The notes under the pieces were generated by a model that saw only the letters and a list, made by a program, of their open reading frames with translations, did not search any database and was not told where the DNA came from. Shown one piece after another: positions 3,348-24,234 of a stretch of 64,000 nt of DNA. A program made the position numbers and the translations under genes. Location of the stretch: the NCBI RefSeq assembly GCF_057098645.1, contig NZ_CM169472.1. The stretch is one strand, 5' to 3'. Numbering within the stretch: position 1 is the first letter of the stretch; every line of letters starts with the position of its first letter.

Positions 3348-4085
3348 TTAATACTCTTTACCTGTTACACGGCTACGGTAGCTATCCCAGTTGAAGATCA
3401 CCCACAAACTGTTACCCAGGCGCATACGGTCCATCACGCGTTCGCCCAGCAACTTGGTCATCTCTTCCATATTACTATTGGTCAGCATCCCGGTTGGGCG
3501 TTTGGAAGAAGAGCGGCGATCGACGATCTGGTTGATGATCACTTTTTCGTATTTCGATTCGGTCTGCACGCCGATCTCATCGATCACCAGCAGATCAACG
3601 TTGCTCAGATCGTTAAGCAGTTGTTCTTCGCTGGTACCGCTATTCCTGAAGGTATCTTTCATCGCCGACATAATATCGGCCACGGTGATGATCAATACGG
3701 ATTTACCGCGTAGCAGCAGCTCGTTGCAGATTGCCGCCGCCAGATGGTTTTTGCCGGTTCCTGGCTTACCAGAAAAGATAAAGCTGGCGATGTTGCCGTC
3801 AAACTCTTCGACATACTGGCGCGCTTTGCTTAACGCATTCATCTGCCCTTCACACTCAACGCGATAGTTCTCAAAGGAGCAGTTCTGATGCAGTGGACGA
3901 ATACCGGAGCGGTTAAAGGTGCGCTGCATTTTCATCGCCCGATTTTCACGTTCGAGAGCGGCAGAGCGGATCGCCCCTTGTTCTTTTTGCCAGGCCAGTA
4001 GTTCTTCACCCGTTTTGAATGCGGGTTTGATATGGGCAGGCATCATTTTTTGCAGGCGTTGCATCAGGTCGCCAACGTTTTTCAT
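3348..4085 (-). CDS. dnaC: DNA replication protein DnaC (helicase loader)
   Basis: 245-aa ORF with Walker A GKPGTGKNHLAAAI; immediately downstream of dnaT. Confidence 0.92.
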   Translation of the reverse strand: MKNVGDLMQRLQKMMPAHIKPAFKTGEELLAWQKEQGAIRSAALERENRAMKMQRTFNRSGIRPLHQNCSFENYRVECEGQMNALSKARQYVEEFDGNIASFIFSGKPGTGKNHLAAAICNELLLRGKSVLIITVADIMSAMKDTFRNSGTSEEQLLNDLSNVDLLVIDEIGVQTESKYEKVIINQIVDRRSSSKRPTGMLTNSNMEEMTKLLGERVMDRMRLGNSLWVIFNWDSYRSRVTGKEY

Positions 4086-4087
4086 CG

Positions 4088-4627
4088 TTACCCTCTGAAT
4101 CCTGGTGGAATTTGGCTGTCAGGTTCGCTGACCGTATTCACATCTCGTTTCGGCAGTCCGCCGTTGCTGGCACGACCGATTTGCAGGCTGCGCGCCAGTT
4201 TTTGTTGCCACTGCACATGGTGAAAGACTTTACCTTCCGCCTGCCAGTAGGCAATGAATGAGGCCAGTTCTTCGGTGGTCACCGGCTCTCTTAGCGCCAC
4301 GCCCCATAGCGCCGCCAGGCGGATAAAATCGGCATCGGGTTGCCAGTCCGGATACATGGCGAATTTCCCCATGGGTACAGCAACGGGAGCGGCTTGCGGT
4401 TCCTGATAGAGTTGATCGTCCAGATCGACATCGCTTCCCGGACGCGCCAGCTTTTCTTCCAGCGCCAGCAGTTCAGCCAGGCGTGCAGGCGTGACGGCAT
4501 AAAACGCCGGGGCATTGTTAGCAAATACGGCAACCACACCGCCTTCAGCTTTTGCCAGAACGGTTTGGTGATCGTGTACCAGGGCGTCAATACCAACGAC
4601 GTCCGGGGTCAAAACTCTGGAAGACAT
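4088..4627 (-). CDS. dnaT: Primosomal protein DnaT
   Basis: Starts [16 protein letters not shown]... and ends ...[13 protein letters not shown]; the ORF-track start at 4639 looks like an upstream extension. Confidence 0.9.
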
Positions 4628-9189: not shown

Positions 9190-9276
9190 TGGTGCGAGGG
9201 GGGGGACTTGAACCCCCACGTCCGTAAGGACACTAACACCTGAAGCTAGCGCGTCTACCAATTCCGCCACCTTCGC
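9190..9276 (-). tRNA. leuV: tRNA-Leu (CAG)
   Basis: 87-nt sequence whose reverse complement is GCGAAGGTGGCGGAATTGGTAGACGCGCTAGCTTCAGGTGTTAGTGTCCTTACGGACGTGGGGGTTCAAGTCCCCCCCCTCGCACCA. Confidence 0.95.
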
Positions 9277-9310
9277 ACAGTCATCTTACTTTTTTTGATA
9301 TCGCCTCGTT

Positions 9311-9397
9311 TGGTGCGAGGGGGGGGACTTGAACCCCCACGTCCGTAAGAACACTAACACCTGAAGCTAGCGCGTCTACCAATTCCGCCACCTTCGC
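9311..9397 (-). tRNA. leuP: tRNA-Leu (CAG), middle copy with one base change in the variable arm
   Basis: Same 87-nt tRNA except gtaagaacact versus gtaaggacact on the plus strand. Confidence 0.93.
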
Positions 9398-9425
9398 CCA
9401 GTGCGAGCAATATCAACGTGGTTTT

Positions 9426-9512
9426 TGGTGCGAGGGGGGGGACTTGAACCCCCACGTCCGTAAGGACACTAACACCTGAAGCTAGCGCGTCTACCAATTC
9501 CGCCACCTTCGC
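9426..9512 (-). tRNA. leuQ: tRNA-Leu (CAG)
   Basis: Third tandem copy, identical to the first. Confidence 0.95.
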
Positions 9513-12852: not shown

Positions 12853-14091
12853 ATGGCGCTGTCTGATGCGTGGTTGCGTTCAGTCGTTGGAAAGGAACGT
12901 GATAAGGTTTTGGTTAAATCCGATCGTGATGGTCTGTCTGTCAGAGTATCACCGAAAGGTCGCGTAGTGTTCCAATATCGTTATCAATGGGCAGGGAAAG
13001 GTGAGCGCCTTGATATCGGAACTTACCCGGCAACTGGATTAAAAGAGGCCAGAGAAGAAGTTATCCGTCTCCGTGGTGAACTCGAGTCAAACCGCAATCC
13101 ACGATTAGTCAAGCAGGCTGAAAAACGAAAAGCTACTGAAGCTATGACGGTAGAGTCTGTGATCCGTGCCTGGTATGAAGCATATTGTGTAAAAAATAAA
13201 AAAGGTTCTGAACAGATACTCCGCTCGTTTGAGCTGCACCTGTTCTCTAAAATCGGGAATATCCCTCACGATGCAGCTACATTGCATGATTGGTTAGAAG
13301 TCCTGGAGCCTCTTAGCACTAAGACTCCAGCAATAGCAGACCGATTGCTAATTAACGCAAAGCAGGCCCATGTCTGGGCGTATAAGAGAAAGCTCATTGA
13401 AACTCGCCCGCTGTCGGATATCACGGGTAAAGATATGGATATCCGTAAAGGTCAGAAGAAACGGTTTCTGACACATGATGAAATTAAAATCCTTTATGCT
13501 GCGATCGATGGTTCTCGAATGGTTCCCAAATACCGGGCCTTCATTAAACTATTGCTGCATTTCGGCTGTCGTAGTTCAGAGCTGATTACTGCCAGGGTGG
13601 ATGATTTTGATTTCATTAATAAGGTATGGACTGTACCGCCAGAACGACATAAGACAGGTGATATAACAGGCGAACCGCTAAAGCGCCCCATTATTGAACC
13701 GGTTGAAGAGCTTATAAAATACGTTATCTCTATGAACAACGGTTCCGATATGCTTTTTACCAAGGAAGGAAGCAAGGAGCCAGTTGGTCGGACATCATTG
13801 CAGTCGCTGCCTTACAATTTAATGCAGTACGCATGGCGGCGTTTGGGGTATCAATTTCCTCATTGGTCTCTTCATGATTTGAGACGAACAGCACGAACAA
13901 ACTTTTCTGATCTTACTGCGCCTCATATTGCTGAAATAATGCTCGGTCATAAACTGCCAGGGGTATGGCAAGTTTATGATAAGAGCGATTATCTAGAAGA
14001 ACAGCGTAAAGCCTATCAGGCATGGTGGGATAGGGTTGATTCGATTCTTACTTACACTAATTTAGGTTCCAACAGACAGCCTATTGAATAA
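12853..14091 (+). CDS. int: Phage tyrosine integrase (P4-type, N-terminal arm-binding DUF4102-like domain)
   Basis: 412 aa; catalytic signature HDLRRTARTN ... LGHK ... VYDKSDY; adjacent to attL. Confidence 0.9.
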   Translation: MALSDAWLRSVVGKERDKVLVKSDRDGLSVRVSPKGRVVFQYRYQWAGKGERLDIGTYPATGLKEAREEVIRLRGELESNRNPRLVKQAEKRKATEAMTVESVIRAWYEAYCVKNKKGSEQILRSFELHLFSKIGNIPHDAATLHDWLEVLEPLSTKTPAIADRLLINAKQAHVWAYKRKLIETRPLSDITGKDMDIRKGQKKRFLTHDEIKILYAAIDGSRMVPKYRAFIKLLLHFGCRSSELITARVDDFDFINKVWTVPPERHKTGDITGEPLKRPIIEPVEELIKYVISMNNGSDMLFTKEGSKEPVGRTSLQSLPYNLMQYAWRRLGYQFPHWSLHDLRRTARTNFSDLTAPHIAEIMLGHKLPGVWQVYDKSDYLEEQRKAYQAWWDRVDSILTYTNLGSNRQPIE

Positions 14092-14243: not shown

Positions 14244-15851
14244 TTATGGCTGAGACTCTGGTTTAGCAATCTCGTTTATAAATTTCTTAGCTACAACAGT
14301 CTCATACTTTCTATAATCATCAAGATATTGAACATCTATATGATTTTCGTAGCGAGCATTAAATTTATTTGCAGCCCCTGTTTTATCATCTTTACGTTCA
14401 TCCGTTGGTCTGAAAAATTTATGGTAGCGGCGGGGTGATACCCCCTCAAAATCACAAAATATTACTTTGGAAGATTCTTCGTTCTTTGTTATTGCATCAT
14501 TATGCAGATCAAGAGCAAGACTTTTATCAAATGGCTCTATATATACTACTTTTTTTATTCCAGCTGCGACAATATGCCTTGCACAGTTGTGGCAGGGATA
14601 GGTTGTCGTAAAAAGAATTTTATCTTTAGTATCGCCGTTTTGTTTTCTAGCCATTGATGTAATGACGTCCATTTCAGCATGAATTGATCTGGAGTACTCC
14701 ATTACACTTGATATTTTGCTGTCTTTGTAAATGCCTTCTGCAATATTATCTAATTTGTTTAGAAGTCGTGTTATATTAATATCGGCAACAGTTTGTCCTG
14801 CGGAAATACCTAATACAGTTCTTACTTCGGTTGATAATATGCTTTTTATACGGTCTTTAATTTTTAGCTTGTTTGCATCATTATAACACTTACCACTTTT
14901 GTGAACGCATCGATGATCGTTATCAAAATCATCACTGCTATACAACCCGCCACCAGCTTTAGGTACGTCGTTCTTACCCACGGCAAGCAAATTCCCTTCA
15001 TCATCAAACAGTGCAGCCCCTACTTGACGTGATAAACAAGCTGATTGTAATGATGTTGAAAAGGCAGCATACATACCTTTCTCGTTAAAAGTTGGTGTTA
15101 AACCATTTTTGCCATGAATAAGACCGAAAAACCGATCAATCTTCTTCTTTAATTCACTTTTTTGGCTGAAGTTATTTTTAATAAAAAAATCTGAATCAAG
15201 AATGGTTTCCCCGGTTCTTTGTCCATACGGATCAGAGGATTTATTATCAATATTGATAATTAAATGAAGGTCGTTCTTTGTCGATTCGTCATCAATGAGA
15301 TTCTGAATTCGGTAATCTAAATCGCGCAAAACTCCTAACAAATAGAAATTATGCTGATATATAACTCTGAATAACTCTATTTCTTCCGGCCTTTTGAATT
15401 GATCAATGATGAAGACAGTACCTTTATATTCATCATTATTATAATCATTATTATAATCAATATTATTTTTCTCTGCTGCGATTGCTGCAATAGCAGCTTC
15501 TGCAAGCAACTCATTTTTTTTGTAATGTTTACGAAGTTTATTGGCAATATCCTGGAGTTTTAAATGTCTATTAGCTTGTGTGCTTTCGGATACCTTCAGT
15601 GCTGCTGGCTCAAAATATAATGGGTTTTCCATAAGCGCACTTATGCGGATGTGTACAACATTATACCCCCATTCTTTGGATATCTCTTCGATAATTTTGT
15701 TTATCGTTCTCATGCCACATCCAACATATCCACACAATCCAAGATAAATATCTTTTGATTGTCGTGAATTCACAATCTCAAGTGATGATGCCGATGTTGA
15801 GCCTTTTTTTTCATTCAGCTTTTGTGGAGTTTTTTTTGCTGCTTCAGCCAT
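14244..15851 (-). CDS. AvcD-like / dCTP-deaminase-family defense protein: N-terminal degenerate P-loop NTPase (kinase-like) fused to a C-terminal dCMP/cytidine-deaminase (CDA-fold) domain
   Basis: 535 aa; degenerate Walker A LGLCGYVGCGMRT (aa 38-49); deaminase zinc motifs HAEMDVI (aa 391) and PCHNCARH (aa 419-426); AT-rich cargo between int and xis. Confidence 0.7.
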   Translation of the reverse strand: MAEAAKKTPQKLNEKKGSTSASSLEIVNSRQSKDIYLGLCGYVGCGMRTINKIIEEISKEWGYNVVHIRISALMENPLYFEPAALKVSESTQANRHLKLQDIANKLRKHYKKNELLAEAAIAAIAAEKNNIDYNNDYNNDEYKGTVFIIDQFKRPEEIELFRVIYQHNFYLLGVLRDLDYRIQNLIDDESTKNDLHLIINIDNKSSDPYGQRTGETILDSDFFIKNNFSQKSELKKKIDRFFGLIHGKNGLTPTFNEKGMYAAFSTSLQSACLSRQVGAALFDDEGNLLAVGKNDVPKAGGGLYSSDDFDNDHRCVHKSGKCYNDANKLKIKDRIKSILSTEVRTVLGISAGQTVADINITRLLNKLDNIAEGIYKDSKISSVMEYSRSIHAEMDVITSMARKQNGDTKDKILFTTTYPCHNCARHIVAAGIKKVVYIEPFDKSLALDLHNDAITKNEESSKVIFCDFEGVSPRRYHKFFRPTDERKDDKTGAANKFNARYENHIDVQYLDDYRKYETVVAKKFINEIAKPESQP

Positions 15852-20141: not shown

Positions 20142-20816
20142 TTAGGCCTTTATTATGTATCTTCTTGGTTTTCCTGAGAAAATCACTGTACCAATTATAG
20201 AGCAATTACCGTTGATCTTAATGTAAGGTTCAGGCCAGTTTGGGTTTAATGCTTTGAGGTAACGCTGTGTTCCATCTTCTATCAACCGCTTGAAGGTGGT
20301 TTCGCCTGTATCGTGCATCAATGCAATAACGTCGTCACCGTGGCAGGCAGGGACTTCAGGATCAACAAAAATCATGTCTCCCGGGCGGTACTCATCAATC
20401 ATTGAATCACCAATCACCCGCAAGATATAAGTCATTTCGCCACAGGGTACAGGGCAGGGGTAAGTTTCTGCTGTGCTCAAATCAACCTCAGAATAGCCAA
20501 CTTCTTTCCATGCTCCGGCCTGTACCCATGATATGACAGGGACTAACGTTATTTGTTTGTTAGTGATTGAAACATCAGGTTTTTTTGTGATGTTCGTGGT
20601 CTGGTGTTCTTGATCAAGCCATCCGACAGGCAGGTCGAAACATTTTTCGATGTGCCGCGCCATGCTGTCACCGATATTTTTAGTAGCACCATCTCCCATA
20701 AACCTGCTGGTCTGGGTTGGCTCGCGATCAATCATGGTGGCAAAGGAAGAATTCCCGCCAACACCATCTCTCAGTTTTCTGGCGTTAGACCGCCGGATGT
20801 CATGGACTGTTTTCAT
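20142..20816 (-). CDS. cI: CI-like prophage repressor (HTH plus LexA-like S24 peptidase domain)
   Basis: 224 aa; C-terminal S24 region with GDSM motif (VIGDSMIDEYRPGDMIFVDPE); divergent from a cro-like gene. Confidence 0.85.
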   Translation of the reverse strand: MKTVHDIRRSNARKLRDGVGGNSSFATMIDREPTQTSRFMGDGATKNIGDSMARHIEKCFDLPVGWLDQEHQTTNITKKPDVSITNKQITLVPVISWVQAGAWKEVGYSEVDLSTAETYPCPVPCGEMTYILRVIGDSMIDEYRPGDMIFVDPEVPACHGDDVIALMHDTGETTFKRLIEDGTQRYLKALNPNWPEPYIKINGNCSIIGTVIFSGKPRRYIIKA

Positions 20817-20851: not shown

Positions 20852-20906
20852 GTATCTTGAAGGTTCATCTTAATCATGTAATATGTATACCGGAGGTACA
20901 TATTGT

Positions 20907-21107
20907 ATGAAAGCGTATTGGGACTCTTTAACCAAAGAACAGCAGGGCGAGTTGGCCGGAAAAGTTGGCTCAACACCAGGCTATTTACGGCTGGTTTTCA
21001 ATGGTTATAAAAAAGCCAGTTTTGTGCTGGCTAAAAAACTTGAGCAATGCACGTCAGGTGCAATTACGAAATCTGACTTAAGACCGGATATCTATCCGAA
21101 AGATTAA
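20907..21107 (+). CDS. cro: Cro/YdaS-like HTH regulator
   Basis: Small HTH ORF divergent from cI; GGAGG RBS before the ATG at 20907. Confidence 0.7.
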   Translation: MKAYWDSLTKEQQGELAGKVGSTPGYLRLVFNGYKKASFVLAKKLEQCTSGAITKSDLRPDIYPKD

Positions 21108-21138: not shown

Positions 21139-21702
21139 ATGAGGCTAACCGTGGGTAAGCATCACTGGAAAGTAGAAAAACAGCCTGAGTGGTACGTGAA
21201 AGCTGTCAGAAAAACTATCGCGGCGTTGCCGGGGGGGTACGCTGAAGCTGCTGAGTGGCTAGATGTAACAGAGAACGCTTTATTCAACCGCCTTCGTGCA
21301 GATGGCGATCAGATTTTCCCGCTGGGATGGGCAATGATTTTACAGCGCGCGGCTGGCACTCACTACATTGCGGATGCTGTCGCACAGTCTGCTGGTGGGG
21401 TGTTTGTATCGCTTCCTGAAATTGAGGAAGTAGAGAACGCCGATATAAACCAGCGCCTGCTGGAAGTCATCGAACAGATCGGGAGTTACTCAAAGCAGAT
21501 TCGTTCGGCAATCGAAGATGGGGTAGTGGAGCCACACGAGCAGACAGCAATTAATGATGAGTTGTATCTGTCAATTTCGAAGCTCCAGGAGCATGCAGCA
21601 CTGGTCTACAAAATCTTTTGCGCTCCAGAAAAGAGTGACGCCCGCGAGTGTGCAGCTCCGGGCGTCGTGGCGTTTTGTGTCTGTGGAGAAACTAACGCAT
21701 GA
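21139..21702 (+). CDS. CII-like / YdaT-family phage regulatory protein
   Basis: 187-aa ORF directly after cro; assigned by position and general resemblance to prophage CII/CP76-type proteins. Confidence 0.45.
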   Translation: MRLTVGKHHWKVEKQPEWYVKAVRKTIAALPGGYAEAAEWLDVTENALFNRLRADGDQIFPLGWAMILQRAAGTHYIADAVAQSAGGVFVSLPEIEEVENADINQRLLEVIEQIGSYSKQIRSAIEDGVVEPHEQTAINDELYLSISKLQEHAALVYKIFCAPEKSDARECAAPGVVAFCVCGETNA

Positions 21703-22535
21703 ACAGTTTAACGGCAAATAACCGTTTGTCGCAACAGCTGGTGGTCAGCGTCGCTGAACACCTGTTGTTACGGCATGAATGCAGATTACCAAATCACCTG
21801 GCTGTAAGTAACCACAGAGAACTTTACCTGACTGTGGGGGGCGAGTTGTGCAGGAACTTAACCGCTGGTTTCGTGACGGAAGAGGGCTTTATGTCCATGT
21901 TATTCGTTGGGAGCCAGAAACACAGCGCGTTATCTATCTTCGCAAAGACTACCCGCATGAGTGCTTTAGTCCTTTGTGGAAATTCAGGCGTGATTTTGTT
22001 GAGTGTGAAGGACCACCAGCACATTGATTCTGCCATTCCGGGACGTTACACTGTTCAGGCACCTTATAAAGCGGGTGCCGGGATTGGCGTCCTGGAAATG
22101 TTATCGGCGATATATGACGCGCCAGCGTCTTTTTTATCGTCTGCGTCTGTGCACACCCAAATTATGGTGGGCTGGACGGGGGCACCGAAAGGTGCGCCGG
22201 TTTCCGATAACGCCGGTTACGCCAACCCCGTTCAGTTCACCACCAGCGAAATTGGCGTTTCCGGTGGTGAAGGTAATTCACTGTTATCGGAGGCTGCCAT
22301 CATGGCTACTGTCCCAGCCCTCACTCGTCTGAATGATGAAGACTTACATAAACTCAGTTATGTAACAACTGCACTACGTGCTCTGCGCAAGGTAACTCTT
22401 TCGGATCCGCAGGCGCATCAAGTTCTGGTAGAAACCCTTCTTAACTTGCAGGCTGAACGTATTCGTCTGGCGGATAAGGCTAATTTTCATATTCACCGTC
22501 TCCTGAATATCAGCGGAGGGCATCGTCATGCTTAA
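21699..22535 (+). CDS. Hypothetical phage protein (replication-module position)
   Basis: 278-aa ORF translationally coupled between the CII-like and O-like genes; no motif recognised. Confidence 0.5.
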   Translation: MNSLTANNRLSQQLVVSVAEHLLLRHECRLPNHLAVSNHRELYLTVGGELCRNLTAGFVTEEGFMSMLFVGSQKHSALSIFAKTTRMSALVLCGNSGVILLSVKDHQHIDSAIPGRYTVQAPYKAGAGIGVLEMLSAIYDAPASFLSSASVHTQIMVGWTGAPKGAPVSDNAGYANPVQFTTSEIGVSGGEGNSLLSEAAIMATVPALTRLNDEDLHKLSYVTTALRALRKVTLSDPQAHQVLVETLLNLQAERIRLADKANFHIHRLLNISGGHRHA

Positions 22536-22764
22536 TCCGTTGATCCTCAATATTTGCCGTTTGCTTCAGCGTAAAAAAACATCAATTCCTACAGTTGGGC
22601 AGTGGTACACCACACCTGCAGGGCATGTTCTACGTGTTAGCCTGGTTGACCGTGAATGCCAGAAGGTGATTTGTGAACCGCTGGGCCGTAATTACCGCGT
22701 CAGTATGCCGCTTATAGCCTTTCGCTCCGGAAAAAACATGAAGCATCTCGGAGGTGCAGCATGA
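22528..22764 (+). CDS. Hypothetical small phage protein
   Basis: 78-aa ORF with overlapping stop/start coupling to its neighbours. Confidence 0.4.
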   Translation: MLNPLILNICRLLQRKKTSIPTVGQWYTTPAGHVLRVSLVDRECQKVICEPLGRNYRVSMPLIAFRSGKNMKHLGGAA

Positions 22765-23579
22765 GTATGGAGCTGATGGTTAAAGCGATGAAAATTCGAG
22801 TGGGTAATCCATTGCGAAAACTGGTTCTGATCAAGCTGGCTGATAATGCCAGCGATCAGGGTGAGTGCTGGCCCAGCTACCAGCATATTGCTGACCAGTG
22901 CGAGATTAGCAAACGTTCTGTGATGAATCATATTGCGGCCCTTTGTGAGTCCGGGCTGGTAAAAAAAGTCACCCGGAAAGGTGAAAAAGGTAACTCAAGT
23001 AATATCTATCTCCTTCATCTGGATGGTGCAGGAGATTCACTAGGGGGTAGTGCAAATAATTCACTATCTGGTGCAGCAAATTCACCAGGTAGTGCAGGAG
23101 TTGCACCAGGGGGTAGTGCAGGAGATTCACCCAGAACCAGTCACTCTTTTGAACCAGTCAAAGAACCAGTCAATGAACCAATAGCTGTTGGTGCATCAGT
23201 TGATGAGTCCGTGCGAGTTCGTTCAAACCGACCGGAATATTCTCCGGAGTTTGAGCAGGCATGGCTGGCATATCCCAAACGTGCTGGTGGCAATTCAAAA
23301 TCTGCAGCCTTCAAAGCCTGGAAAGCCCGTTTGAATGAGGGGGTAAACCCCGAAACCATGCTGGAAGGTGTGAAACGCTATGCGGGCTGGGTATCTGCGA
23401 TGGGTAACAGCGGCACACAATTTGTGAAACAGGCTGTCACGTTCTTTGGTCCGGATCGTCATTTCGAAGAATCCTGGGAAGTTCCTGCGGTATCTGCAGC
23501 CAGACGTGAGGACCCGTACTTCAAATCCAGTTACGACAACGTGGACTACAGCCAGATCCCGGCAGGATTCAGGGGGTGA
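22761..23579 (+). CDS. Replication initiator (O-like N-terminal HTH) with a DnaT-like C-terminal domain
   Basis: N-terminal HTH (IADQCEISKRSVMNHIAALCESGLV); Gly/Ser-rich linker encoded by repeats; C-terminus ...DYSQIPAGFRG matches host DnaT ...[10 protein letters not shown]. Confidence 0.7.
   Translation: MSMELMVKAMKIRVGNPLRKLVLIKLADNASDQGECWPSYQHIADQCEISKRSVMNHIAALCESGLVKKVTRKGEKGNSSNIYLLHLDGAGDSLGGSANNSLSGAANSPGSAGVAPGGSAGDSPRTSHSFEPVKEPVNEPIAVGASVDESVRVRSNRPEYSPEFEQAWLAYPKRAGGNSKSAAFKAWKARLNEGVNPETMLEGVKRYAGWVSAMGNSGTQFVKQAVTFFGPDRHFEESWEVPAVSAARREDPYFKSSYDNVDYSQIPAGFRG
23034..23190. repeat. Iteron-like direct repeats inside the O-like gene (candidate ori)
   Basis: ggtgcaggagattcac at 23035 and 23126; five gtagtgca/ggtgcag units; three gaaccagtca units at 23145..23182. 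Confidence 0.5.
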
Positions 23580-23911
23580 TCATGAGTCTTTTGAATGACG
23601 TTCAGAAATTCATTGAAGCCCATCCGGGGTGTACTTCCGGAGACATTGCGGATGCTTTTGCAGGTTACTCACGGCAGCGCGTACTGCAGTCAGCAAGCAA
23701 GTTACGTCAGAGTGGGCGTGTGGCTCACCGTTGTGAAGGGGATACACGCAGACATTTCCCGCGCCTGACTGAGAGAGCGCAGGAGCCGGAACCACAACCA
23801 GTTCGTGAAACCAGACCTGTGCGCAATTTCTATGTCGGCACTAACGATTCCCGGGTGATTTTGTGCCTGACTCGCCAGGCGGAAAAACTGGTCAGGGAGA
23901 TGGCGGCATGA
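23576..23911 (+). CDS. Hypothetical phage protein
   Basis: 111-aa ORF coupled between the replication gene and the LexA-like gene. Confidence 0.4.
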   Translation: MIMSLLNDVQKFIEAHPGCTSGDIADAFAGYSRQRVLQSASKLRQSGRVAHRCEGDTRRHFPRLTERAQEPEPQPVRETRPVRNFYVGTNDSRVILCLTRQAEKLVREMAA

Positions 23912-24234
23912 CGACGTTAACTCAATGCCAGCAGCAGGTGCTGGATATGCTGATTTCTTACCAGAAAGAACGTGGCTTCCCGCCAACCAATCAGGAGGTG
24001 GCAACCATGCTGGGATACCGTTCAGTGAATGCAGCGGTGGAGCATCTTCGCGCACTGGAGAAAAAAGGCGTCATCACGATAAAGCGTGGCGTGGCCCGGG
24101 GGATCACGCTTCATACCGCAGTGAAGGACGACGACAGCGAAGCGGTCGGTATCATCCGCGCACTGCTTGCCGGTGAGGAGAACGCCAGGCTGCGTGCAGC
24201 CCACTGGTTACATGAGAGGGGCCTGAAAGTATGA
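23908..24234 (+). CDS. LexA N-terminal DNA-binding-domain-only protein (no S24 peptidase domain)
   Basis: MTTLTQCQQQVLDMLISYQKERGFPPTNQEVATMLGYRSVNAAVEHLRALEKKGVITIKRGVARGITL closely parallels the LexA N-domain; the protein ends after ~108 aa. Confidence 0.7.
   Translation: MTTLTQCQQQVLDMLISYQKERGFPPTNQEVATMLGYRSVNAAVEHLRALEKKGVITIKRGVARGITLHTAVKDDDSEAVGIIRALLAGEENARLRAAHWLHERGLKV

Follow-up and report, generated by a model that had tools for sequence, protein, structure and literature searches.

The stretch of DNA analysed here (the window) comprises 64,000 nucleotides (nt) of contig NZ_CM169472.1 in NCBI RefSeq assembly GCF_057098645.1. It contains the host genes dnaT and dnaC and, at some distance, a prophage whose replication initiator ends in almost the same peptide as host DnaT. 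The subject of this analysis is that C-terminal peptide, its distribution among phage initiators and its proposed part in helicase loading. The features on which the analysis rests are as follows:

22761-23579, plus strand: replication initiator gene (open reading frame, ORF), a homolog of phage SfV orf39 encoding 272 amino acids (aa)
22809-22961, plus strand: N-terminal winged-helix domain of the initiator, aa 17-67 (Pfam HTH_36, 2.7e-11; DnaD_N, 5.6e-5)
23026-23180, no strand assigned: iteron-like direct repeats in the linker-coding part of the initiator gene, a candidate phage origin
23208-23477, plus strand: C-terminal helical 'body' of the initiator, aa ~150-239, FEQAWLAYPKR...FFGPDRHFEESW (PHROGs 26426, 18526, 3729 and 1701)
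23478-23576, plus strand: exchangeable C-terminal tail, aa 240-272, with the core DnaT-type motif SQIPAGFRG at aa 264-272 (23550-23576)
23571-23576, plus strand: AGGGGG, the last two sense codons of the initiator (Arg-Gly) and at the same time the Shine-Dalgarno sequence of the next gene (window sequence TTCAGGGGGTGATCATGAGT, next ATG at 23582)
4088-4627, minus strand: host dnaT (NCBIfam equivalog NF002770, 348.8 bits), its tail encoded at 4091-4147
3348-4085, minus strand: host dnaC, starting 2 nt past the dnaT stop codon; the only DnaC-like ORF of the window and the proposed target of the tail

The initiator gene itself is of the common SfV type and has been sequenced before. Its product is 99.6% identical to the 'replication protein' encoded by SfV orf39, and its top PHROG is phrog_270 (replication initiation protein, 1.8e-88), with phrog_8540 matching at 7.8e-62. 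PHROGs 8540 and 391 (O-like) span aa 1-140, and the families that match the N-terminal and the C-terminal halves are separate. The winged-helix domain (Pfam HTH_36, phrog_270, phrog_8540) places the protein among the Lambda-O-like initiators and, judged from the sequence, is presumed to bind the origin. The position of the gene, 3' of cro and cII-like genes, is likewise that of a Lambda-O-like initiator; the adjacent cognate loader of such initiators (P, DnaC-like or IstB-like) is absent from the window module. The helical body is one member of a large family, with matches at E<=1e-3 in 4344 representative proteins. Pfam gave no match within aa 145-272, and a search for a relative of the initiator with a solved structure found none. 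Between the winged-helix domain and the body the gene contains the repeats, which encode a Gly/Ser/Ala-rich linker and consist of about five units of 21-24 nt with a dyad core GTGCA-N5-T(T/G)CAC (23026-23131), followed by three copies of the 11-nt GAACCAGTCA. By analogy with lambda, where ori lies inside gene O, they may be the phage origin. Initiator homologs vary in length between 242 and 302 aa, and the C-terminal 45 residues are unchanged throughout.

The C-terminus of the initiator reads FKSSYDNVDYSQIPAGFRG, i.e. ...DYSQIPAGFRG and then the stop codon. When initiator and DnaT were compared by BLASTP the last nine residues aligned, eight of them identical (E=0.009 when only these two sequences are compared); the rest gave no alignment. 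The initial annotation was therefore right in describing the two C-termini as nearly identical, and the extreme C-terminal peptide that marks the DnaT family (...PDxxIPPGFRG) is present in the initiator at eight of nine residues. Homology at the level of domains was a different matter. The Pfam DnaT domain (PF17948) covers only aa 89-154 of DnaT (5.6e-21) and has no match in the initiator, in which the three-helix single-stranded DNA (ssDNA)-binding C-terminal domain (CTD; DnaT aa ~89-154) was not found. The initiator matched no NCBIfam family and showed neither the N-terminal oligomerisation domain nor the PriB-binding linker of DnaT, and a DnaT N-terminal probe matched none of the tailed phage initiators. 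Homology between the initiator's C-terminal half and the DnaT CTD was rejected, with a probability of 4.6% in an hhalign comparison of profiles and with phmmer hit sets that share no members. The similarity is thus confined to the terminal residues, formally the very outcome that the initial annotation had named as speaking against its idea. It does not refute the functional part of that idea, because the tail acts as an autonomous transplantable peptide, as described below.

Nor is the match a matter of chance. A degenerate DNA pattern for IPPGFRG followed by a stop codon was run on viral contigs and found 79 sites, 78 of which lay in a readable ORF (the remaining one was at a contig end), and all 78 were the C-terminus of an initiator-type ORF.

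No P-like, DnaC/IstB-like or DnaB-like ORF other than host dnaC (3348-4085) is present in the window, and the statement of the initial annotation that the module has no evident P-like gene holds across all window ORFs. The same is true of 80 near-identical SfV-like viral contigs (972 kb in total), in which no ORF for a loader or a helicase was found.

The tail behaves as a portable module that is independent of the initiator body. Homologs that are 70-99% identical to the window initiator keep the sequence as far as ...HFEESW and then switch to unrelated tails. At least three tails occur on one and the same body (homologs identical as far as ...FFGPDRHFEESW), namely tail A of the DnaT type, tail B (...SDKLTF/...GENLNF) and tail C (...GCQW, from ...SEQDYGxxxxxW). 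The region after HFEESW is hypervariable in a set of 149 diverse proteins taken to represent the body family, 16 of which end in [IV]PxGFRG, a few of them with one or two extra residues. An unrelated body is found in the mEp460 initiator, whose final ~26 aa are nevertheless identical to the SfV tail, while Evi and 75/02 Stx combine other N-termini with the same body and a tail, RCVNHISEPDTEIPPGFRG, that is closer still to that of DnaT. The DnaT-type tail was found on at least nine unrelated initiator architectures in all, with the consensus [ST]xPDxx[IV]PxGF[RKT]G-COOH over roughly 10-20 residues. What is new here is that the DnaT-like ending is a transplantable peptide, and one that is specifically linked to helicase loading of the DnaC type.

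This link became apparent from the genes that follow the tail. The 64 informative loci with an IPPGFRG tail, which fall into nine architecture classes, have dnaC 0-7 nt downstream in 40 cases and no loader in 24, and not one has a loader of another type (11 and 5 loci, respectively, after dereplication). A reciprocal sample of 80 phage loci was picked by DnaC homology alone and forms 19 clusters at 90% identity; the phage DnaC proteins (~247 aa) are 48-52% identical to host DnaC over the full length. All 80 are preceded by an ORF with a related ending: [IV]PxGF[RK]G in 62, IPDGFTG in 11, PPGFN in two and FIPE[DN]F in five. These variants follow the DnaC clades, and IPAGFRG variants, as in the window, are also found directly upstream of phage dnaC. 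In a divergent phage DnaC clade the preceding initiators end in ...QFIPEDF or ...FISENF-COOH, and its DnaC proteins lack the otherwise invariant W228.

The control loci gave the opposite picture. No DnaT-type tail was found at any of 42 loci with IstB-like/DnaB-like genes, nor at any of 79 readable loci chosen by their P-like loader. On the shared body, tails B and C are followed immediately by a 292-293 aa IstB-like AAA+ loader and then a 452-463 aa DnaB-like helicase, whereas neither gene occurs at the tail A loci (window, SfV, EC27, mEp460 and Evi). The contrast recurs on another body within Uetakevirus, where SPN1S has a DnaT CTD with an IPPGFRG tail and no loader, while phiV10 and TL-2011b have a DnaT CTD with other tails and a lambda-P-like gene. 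We also observed that initiator tails ending in ...PEAWEDFL pair with P-like loaders, and that the tails ...GLGxMSDxFGxSxxxLxF and ...SGFSEQDYGxxxxxW pair with the 292-aa IstB-like loader and a phage DnaB-like helicase. The initiator C-termini look like a general loader specificity code.

Some otherwise identical initiators were found both with and without a dnaC-ydaW segment, which suggests that these hosts allow the phage to do without a dnaC of its own. The hosts of the tail-bearing phages in a curated phage collection all belong to Escherichia, Shigella, Salmonella or Klebsiella. For further reference we group Rac YdaU, Gifsy-2 gpO and the initiators of 75/02 Stx, Evi, SPN1S, mEp460 and SfV (orf39) as DnaC-coupled tailed initiators. 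The window protein belongs with them, as it ends in [IV]-P-x-G-F-[RKT]-G-COOH (...SQIPAGFRG and stop) and has an E. coli-type DnaC available in the same genome, encoded by host dnaC at 3348-4085. Host dnaT-dnaC has the layout of the phage modules of tailed initiator and dnaC, such as Rac ydaU-ydaV and Gifsy-2 gpO-dnaC. This common arrangement indicates that the direction is probably the reverse of copying from the host by the phage, with DnaT bearing a tail of phage type.

Part of the conservation may have a cause in the DNA. In both tails, at 23568-23584 for the initiator and at 4083-4096 (minus strand) for the host, the final Arg-Gly codons also supply the next gene with its Shine-Dalgarno sequence. 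The host dnaT gene ends TTCAGAGGGTAAcgATG(dnaC), and its final codons are AGA GGG in DnaT against AGG GGG in the initiator. Among 80 unique tails the penultimate codon is AGG in 62 and the final codon GGG in 64, followed by the stop codon and then, 4-10 nt on, by an ATG. The gene served by this Shine-Dalgarno sequence is orf40 in the window prophage; in the host, as in many phages, it is dnaC. To some extent this role can account for why the final 'RG' is conserved. Neither IPxGF nor the likewise conserved SxPD upstream can be explained in this way, because Ile, Pro and Gly of the motif are each encoded by three to four synonymous codons with invariant amino acids, and because the motif is retained where the next gene is 41-225 nt away or is a gene other than dnaC. 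Even the Arg is encoded by CGC, CGT, CGA or AGA in some tails. The codon comparison thus shows selection on IPxGF at the protein level.

A possible contact between tail and DnaC was approached by structure prediction with AlphaFold2, in which E. coli DnaC was joined, by way of a (G4S)5 linker, to the C-terminal 30 residues of the window initiator, using a 30-row alignment of natural pairs of DnaC and cognate tail. The control had the same DnaC rows fused to one conserved non-cognate tail family (...SDKLTF). The DnaC core of the fusion matches PDB entry 6QEM. In the cognate fusion the last ten residues (YSQIPAGFRG) were predicted with a local distance difference test score (pLDDT) of 78, as compared with 31-41 for the linker and the proximal part of the tail, and residues 100, 224 and 299 formed isolated beta-bridges. 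The non-cognate fusion had a pLDDT of 34 over the last ten residues and no bridge at either 100 or 224. The DnaC clade that is paired with FIPEDF tails has four of its 15 clade-specific substitutions at positions 98 and 226-229, among them the loss of W228. These substitutions are confounded with phylogeny, and together with the predictions they are suggestive only of a contact between tail and DnaC.

Taken together, the data lead us to lean, slightly, towards a reading in which the tail couples the origin-bound initiator to host DnaC, or to the DnaB-DnaC complex, and so removes the need for a phage loader. On this reading the initiator has four modules, beginning with a winged-helix domain that presumably binds iterons within the gene itself; a linker of low complexity follows, then the helical body and, last, a disordered C-terminal peptide. 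This peptide would be a portable recruitment element for the E. coli-type loader DnaC, most likely within DnaB6-DnaC6. Initiators that work with another phage loader, either P-like or the 292-aa IstB-like protein with its own DnaB-like helicase, would accordingly bear different tails, while in SfV-like phages, which have no loader, the tail would let the origin-bound initiator capture host DnaB-DnaC directly. Physical binding of the tail to DnaC, and the place where it would bind, are inferred. On the same reasoning, it could be through its tail that DnaT passes DnaB-DnaC on to the PriA-PriB-DnaT preprimosome. A wider version of this idea is that the C-terminal peptide of DnaT is the preprimosome's recruiter of DnaB6-DnaC6 and binds the edge of the DnaC AAA+ beta-sheet (~98-100 and ~224-229, including W228), that phages graft the same peptide onto any origin-binding protein and thereby make a loader dispensable, and that dnaT-dnaC is a domesticated phage cassette. 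We put this forward tentatively, as a possibility that falls somewhat short of being probable. The initial annotation had proposed that the phage initiator engages the host primosome through a DnaT-like surface instead of through a P-type loader. One half of this stands, in that no phage loader is present and comparative genomics indicates that the tail stands in for it, but the partner to which the data point is a DnaC-type loader or DnaB-DnaC, and not PriA or PriB.

Several points weigh against this interpretation. The AlphaFold2 evidence comes from a workaround by linker fusion with 30-row alignments, is read out by pLDDT and DSSP only, and has a single control. As the ribosome-binding site of the downstream gene, the final Arg-Gly codons are under constraint in the DNA, so that 'RG' looks more conserved than it otherwise would. 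Phylogenetic redundancy affects the samples used for the association: near-identical contigs are numerous, and the P-like set amounts to little more than a single cluster. Since tail and dnaC are neighbours, a degree of co-inheritance is to be expected even without an interaction. Because of this redundancy and adjacency the association between tail and loader, though strong, does not consist of independent events. Nor do the data allow binding to DnaC to be told apart from binding to DnaB in the DnaB-DnaC complex. Finally, other roles have been assigned in the literature: trimerisation for the DnaT tail (Szymanski 2013, as cited in PMC5314882), and recruitment of DnaB/DnaC, as a suggestion, for the N-terminal domain of DnaT (PMC13377028).

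Among the other explanations, direct binding of the tail to host DnaB, with DnaC co-occurring merely as the loader that accompanies this helicase, is unlikely though still the strongest. It would fit the fact that host DnaB is the helicase to be loaded in every tail A case and that phages with their own DnaB-like helicase use other tails. Phages of the P type load host DnaB too, however, and their initiators are without the tail; the tail variants track the phage DnaC clades, and AlphaFold2 predicts an ordered tail on DnaC alone. We consider it improbable that the tail binds host PriA and/or PriB and that the initiator mimics DnaT in a PriA-dependent assembly at the phage origin. PriA and PriB are known partners of DnaT (PMC13377028), and PriA-dependent replication is established for other phages and for plasmids (PMC5778457). 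In the preprimosome structures of 2026, determined by cryo-electron microscopy, the DnaT CTD lies on PriA, the linker lies on PriB and the CTD forms a filament on ssDNA (PMC13377028). PriA and PriB are not the partners indicated by our data, since the parts of DnaT that they contact are absent from the phage protein. The tail is neither described nor discussed with these structures, and the DnaT chains deposited for the mature complex stop at residue 154. The presence of the tail before 80 of 80 dnaC genes, and its absence before P-like and IstB-like loaders, would also be left unexplained.

To an equally small degree we credit the tail with being a self-association element, which would oligomerise DnaT and phage initiators on DNA and recruit no partner. 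Removal of the C-terminal 18 residues is reported to convert the DnaT trimer into a dimer (Szymanski et al. 2013, via PMC5314882), in line with such a role. On the other hand, the tail occurs on at least nine unrelated bodies, which leaves no common body surface for docking, a coupling to the type of loader is not predicted, and in the AlphaFold2 models the tail is predicted to be ordered when DnaC is present. Least probable of all, in our judgement, is that the shared C-terminus is mainly a by-product at the level of DNA, a functionless peptide produced by a ribosome-binding site or translational coupling and travelling with dnaC in mosaic recombination. Such an origin would account for the AGG GGG that ends most tails (AGG being a rare Arg codon) 4-10 nt before the next ATG, likewise in host dnaT-dnaC and in the window, and for the mosaic junction that lies just upstream of the tail between mEp460 and SfV. 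It is at odds with the synonymous variation in the codons for Ile, Pro, Pro and Gly, with the conserved SxPD, with the retention of the motif ahead of distant genes and of genes other than dnaC, and with the alternative Arg codons. A beta-clamp-binding motif of the QLxLF type was also looked for by inspection and rejected, as most tails have E, A or T in place of the Gln and the spacing is wrong for such a motif.

The proposed coupling of the tail to DnaC matters beyond this prophage. In papers from 2024-2026 the handover from the restart preprimosome to DnaB-DnaC is stated to be unknown (PMC11087952, PMC13377028), and the DnaT tail is a concrete candidate for the missing link between the two. 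The phage data nominate a peptide of 10-20 residues and a partner, DnaC, for this handover and so make the question testable. The tail would also explain how a very common prophage family of E. coli, Shigella and Salmonella replicates without a loader, and the code that relates tails to loaders (DnaC, P, or IstB-like plus DnaB-like) should help to annotate phage replication modules and to predict which host factors a phage depends on. A literature search on the tail motif (PPGFRG, IPPGF) and on the function of YdaU/YdaV found nothing relevant among the papers searched. Phage initiators whose C-terminus resembles that of DnaT already bear the annotation 'primosomal protein I'.

The surroundings of the initiator gene are those of an SfV-type prophage, and the order of the early-right region matches that of SfV: repressor, cro, YmfL/CII-like, ash-like, orf38, orf39, orf40, (dam), LexA-like, rusA, KilA-N, DUF968 and Q. 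The neighbouring genes in the window are:

20142-20816, minus strand: repressor, early-right region
20883-21107: cro-like gene, early-right region
21139-21702: YmfL/CII-like gene, early-right region
23582-23911, plus strand: truncated remnant of SfV orf40 (winged-helix protein, 110 aa; phrog_23071, phrog_1324), true start at ATG 23582

Directly after the initiator come the orf40 remnant, the LexA-like gene, rusA and KilA-N. Compared with SfV, the window has lost the 3' part of orf40, the entire dam methylase gene and the start of orf42 (window 23582-24234). In strain EC27 the equivalent orf40 stretch is called an incomplete pseudogene by RefSeq, and about half of the best-matching genomes retain the ~810-bp segment that is deleted at orf40/dam. 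Small winged-helix proteins (orf40-like, YdaW/DUF1627) recur directly 3' of the initiator or of dnaC in such modules. Both orf40 and YdaW were considered as partners of the tail and rejected: tailed initiators of the Evi and SPN1S types have neither downstream, and such proteins are thus not needed to explain the tail. On the other side of the initiator, 21699-22535 appears as one ORF of 278 aa where EC27 is annotated with two genes (DUF4222, and an ash-family protein with an internal start), so that the long ORF is probably an over-extension.

The prophage integrase (12853-14091) lies directly past host yjjG, with no tRNA gene at the junction; the only tRNA genes of the window are three for tRNA-Leu(CAG) at 9190-9512. 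As the prophage begins just past yjjG, ~8 kb from dnaT, it is only by chance of where the prophage inserted that the window holds host dnaT as well. Adjoining the integrase, 14244-15851 (minus strand) encodes a 535-aa protein (phrog_9198) with a dCMP-deaminase-like region at aa 240-460, which may be a cargo or defence gene.

Among known replication systems lambda O/P is the classical counterpart, and the C-terminal part of lambda O recruits the helicase-loading factor, a likeness to the role proposed for the window initiator. Both modules have their place in the operon after cro and a cII-like gene, an initiator with an N-terminal winged-helix domain and iteron-like repeats inside the initiator gene. 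They differ in that the window module has no P and that its recruiter would be a short terminal peptide linked to DnaC, and not a folded C-terminal domain of O that binds P. An O-like HTH_36 N-terminus joined to a DnaT-derived C-terminus has been described before in the DopC/DopE system (Brezellec et al. 2017, PMC5509034). DopC, however, has the fold of the DnaT CTD (the motif of PDB entry 2RU8) and a P-like partner, DopE, while the window initiator has only the terminal peptide and no P-like partner.

The DnaT-type tail has an analog in the C-terminal tip of SSB (DDDIPF), a disordered peptide in which I-P-(x)-F comes after an acidic stretch and by which replication proteins are recruited. By this analogy both would be recruitment peptides, and the FIPEDF-COOH variant is especially similar. 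DnaC is not among the proteins known to bind the SSB tip, and the DnaT-type tail differs from the tip in having R-G after the Phe and in a distribution that is tied to DnaC.

Also close to the window module are Rac YdaU-YdaV, Gifsy-2 gpO-DnaC and the 'primosomal protein I'-DnaC pair of Shigella phage 75/02 Stx, in which the initiators end in ...IPPGFRG and a true DnaC of ~247 aa is encoded 0-7 nt on. The C-terminal body of the window protein is shared with 75/02 Stx and Evi, and the N-terminal domains differ. Rac, Gifsy-2 and 75/02 Stx carry their own dnaC (Evi is excepted), whereas the SfV-type module has none and must use that of the host. E. coli DnaT (primosomal protein i, or replication restart protein) in turn lacks HTH_36 and the unrelated helical body of the phage protein and has instead the N-terminal oligomerisation domain, the PriB-binding linker and the ssDNA-binding CTD. 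The two proteins have in common the extreme C-terminus SQIP[PA]GFRG, a next gene within a few nt whose Shine-Dalgarno sequence lies in the last two codons, and a dependence on loading of DnaB by a DnaC-type protein, which for the initiator is as proposed here.

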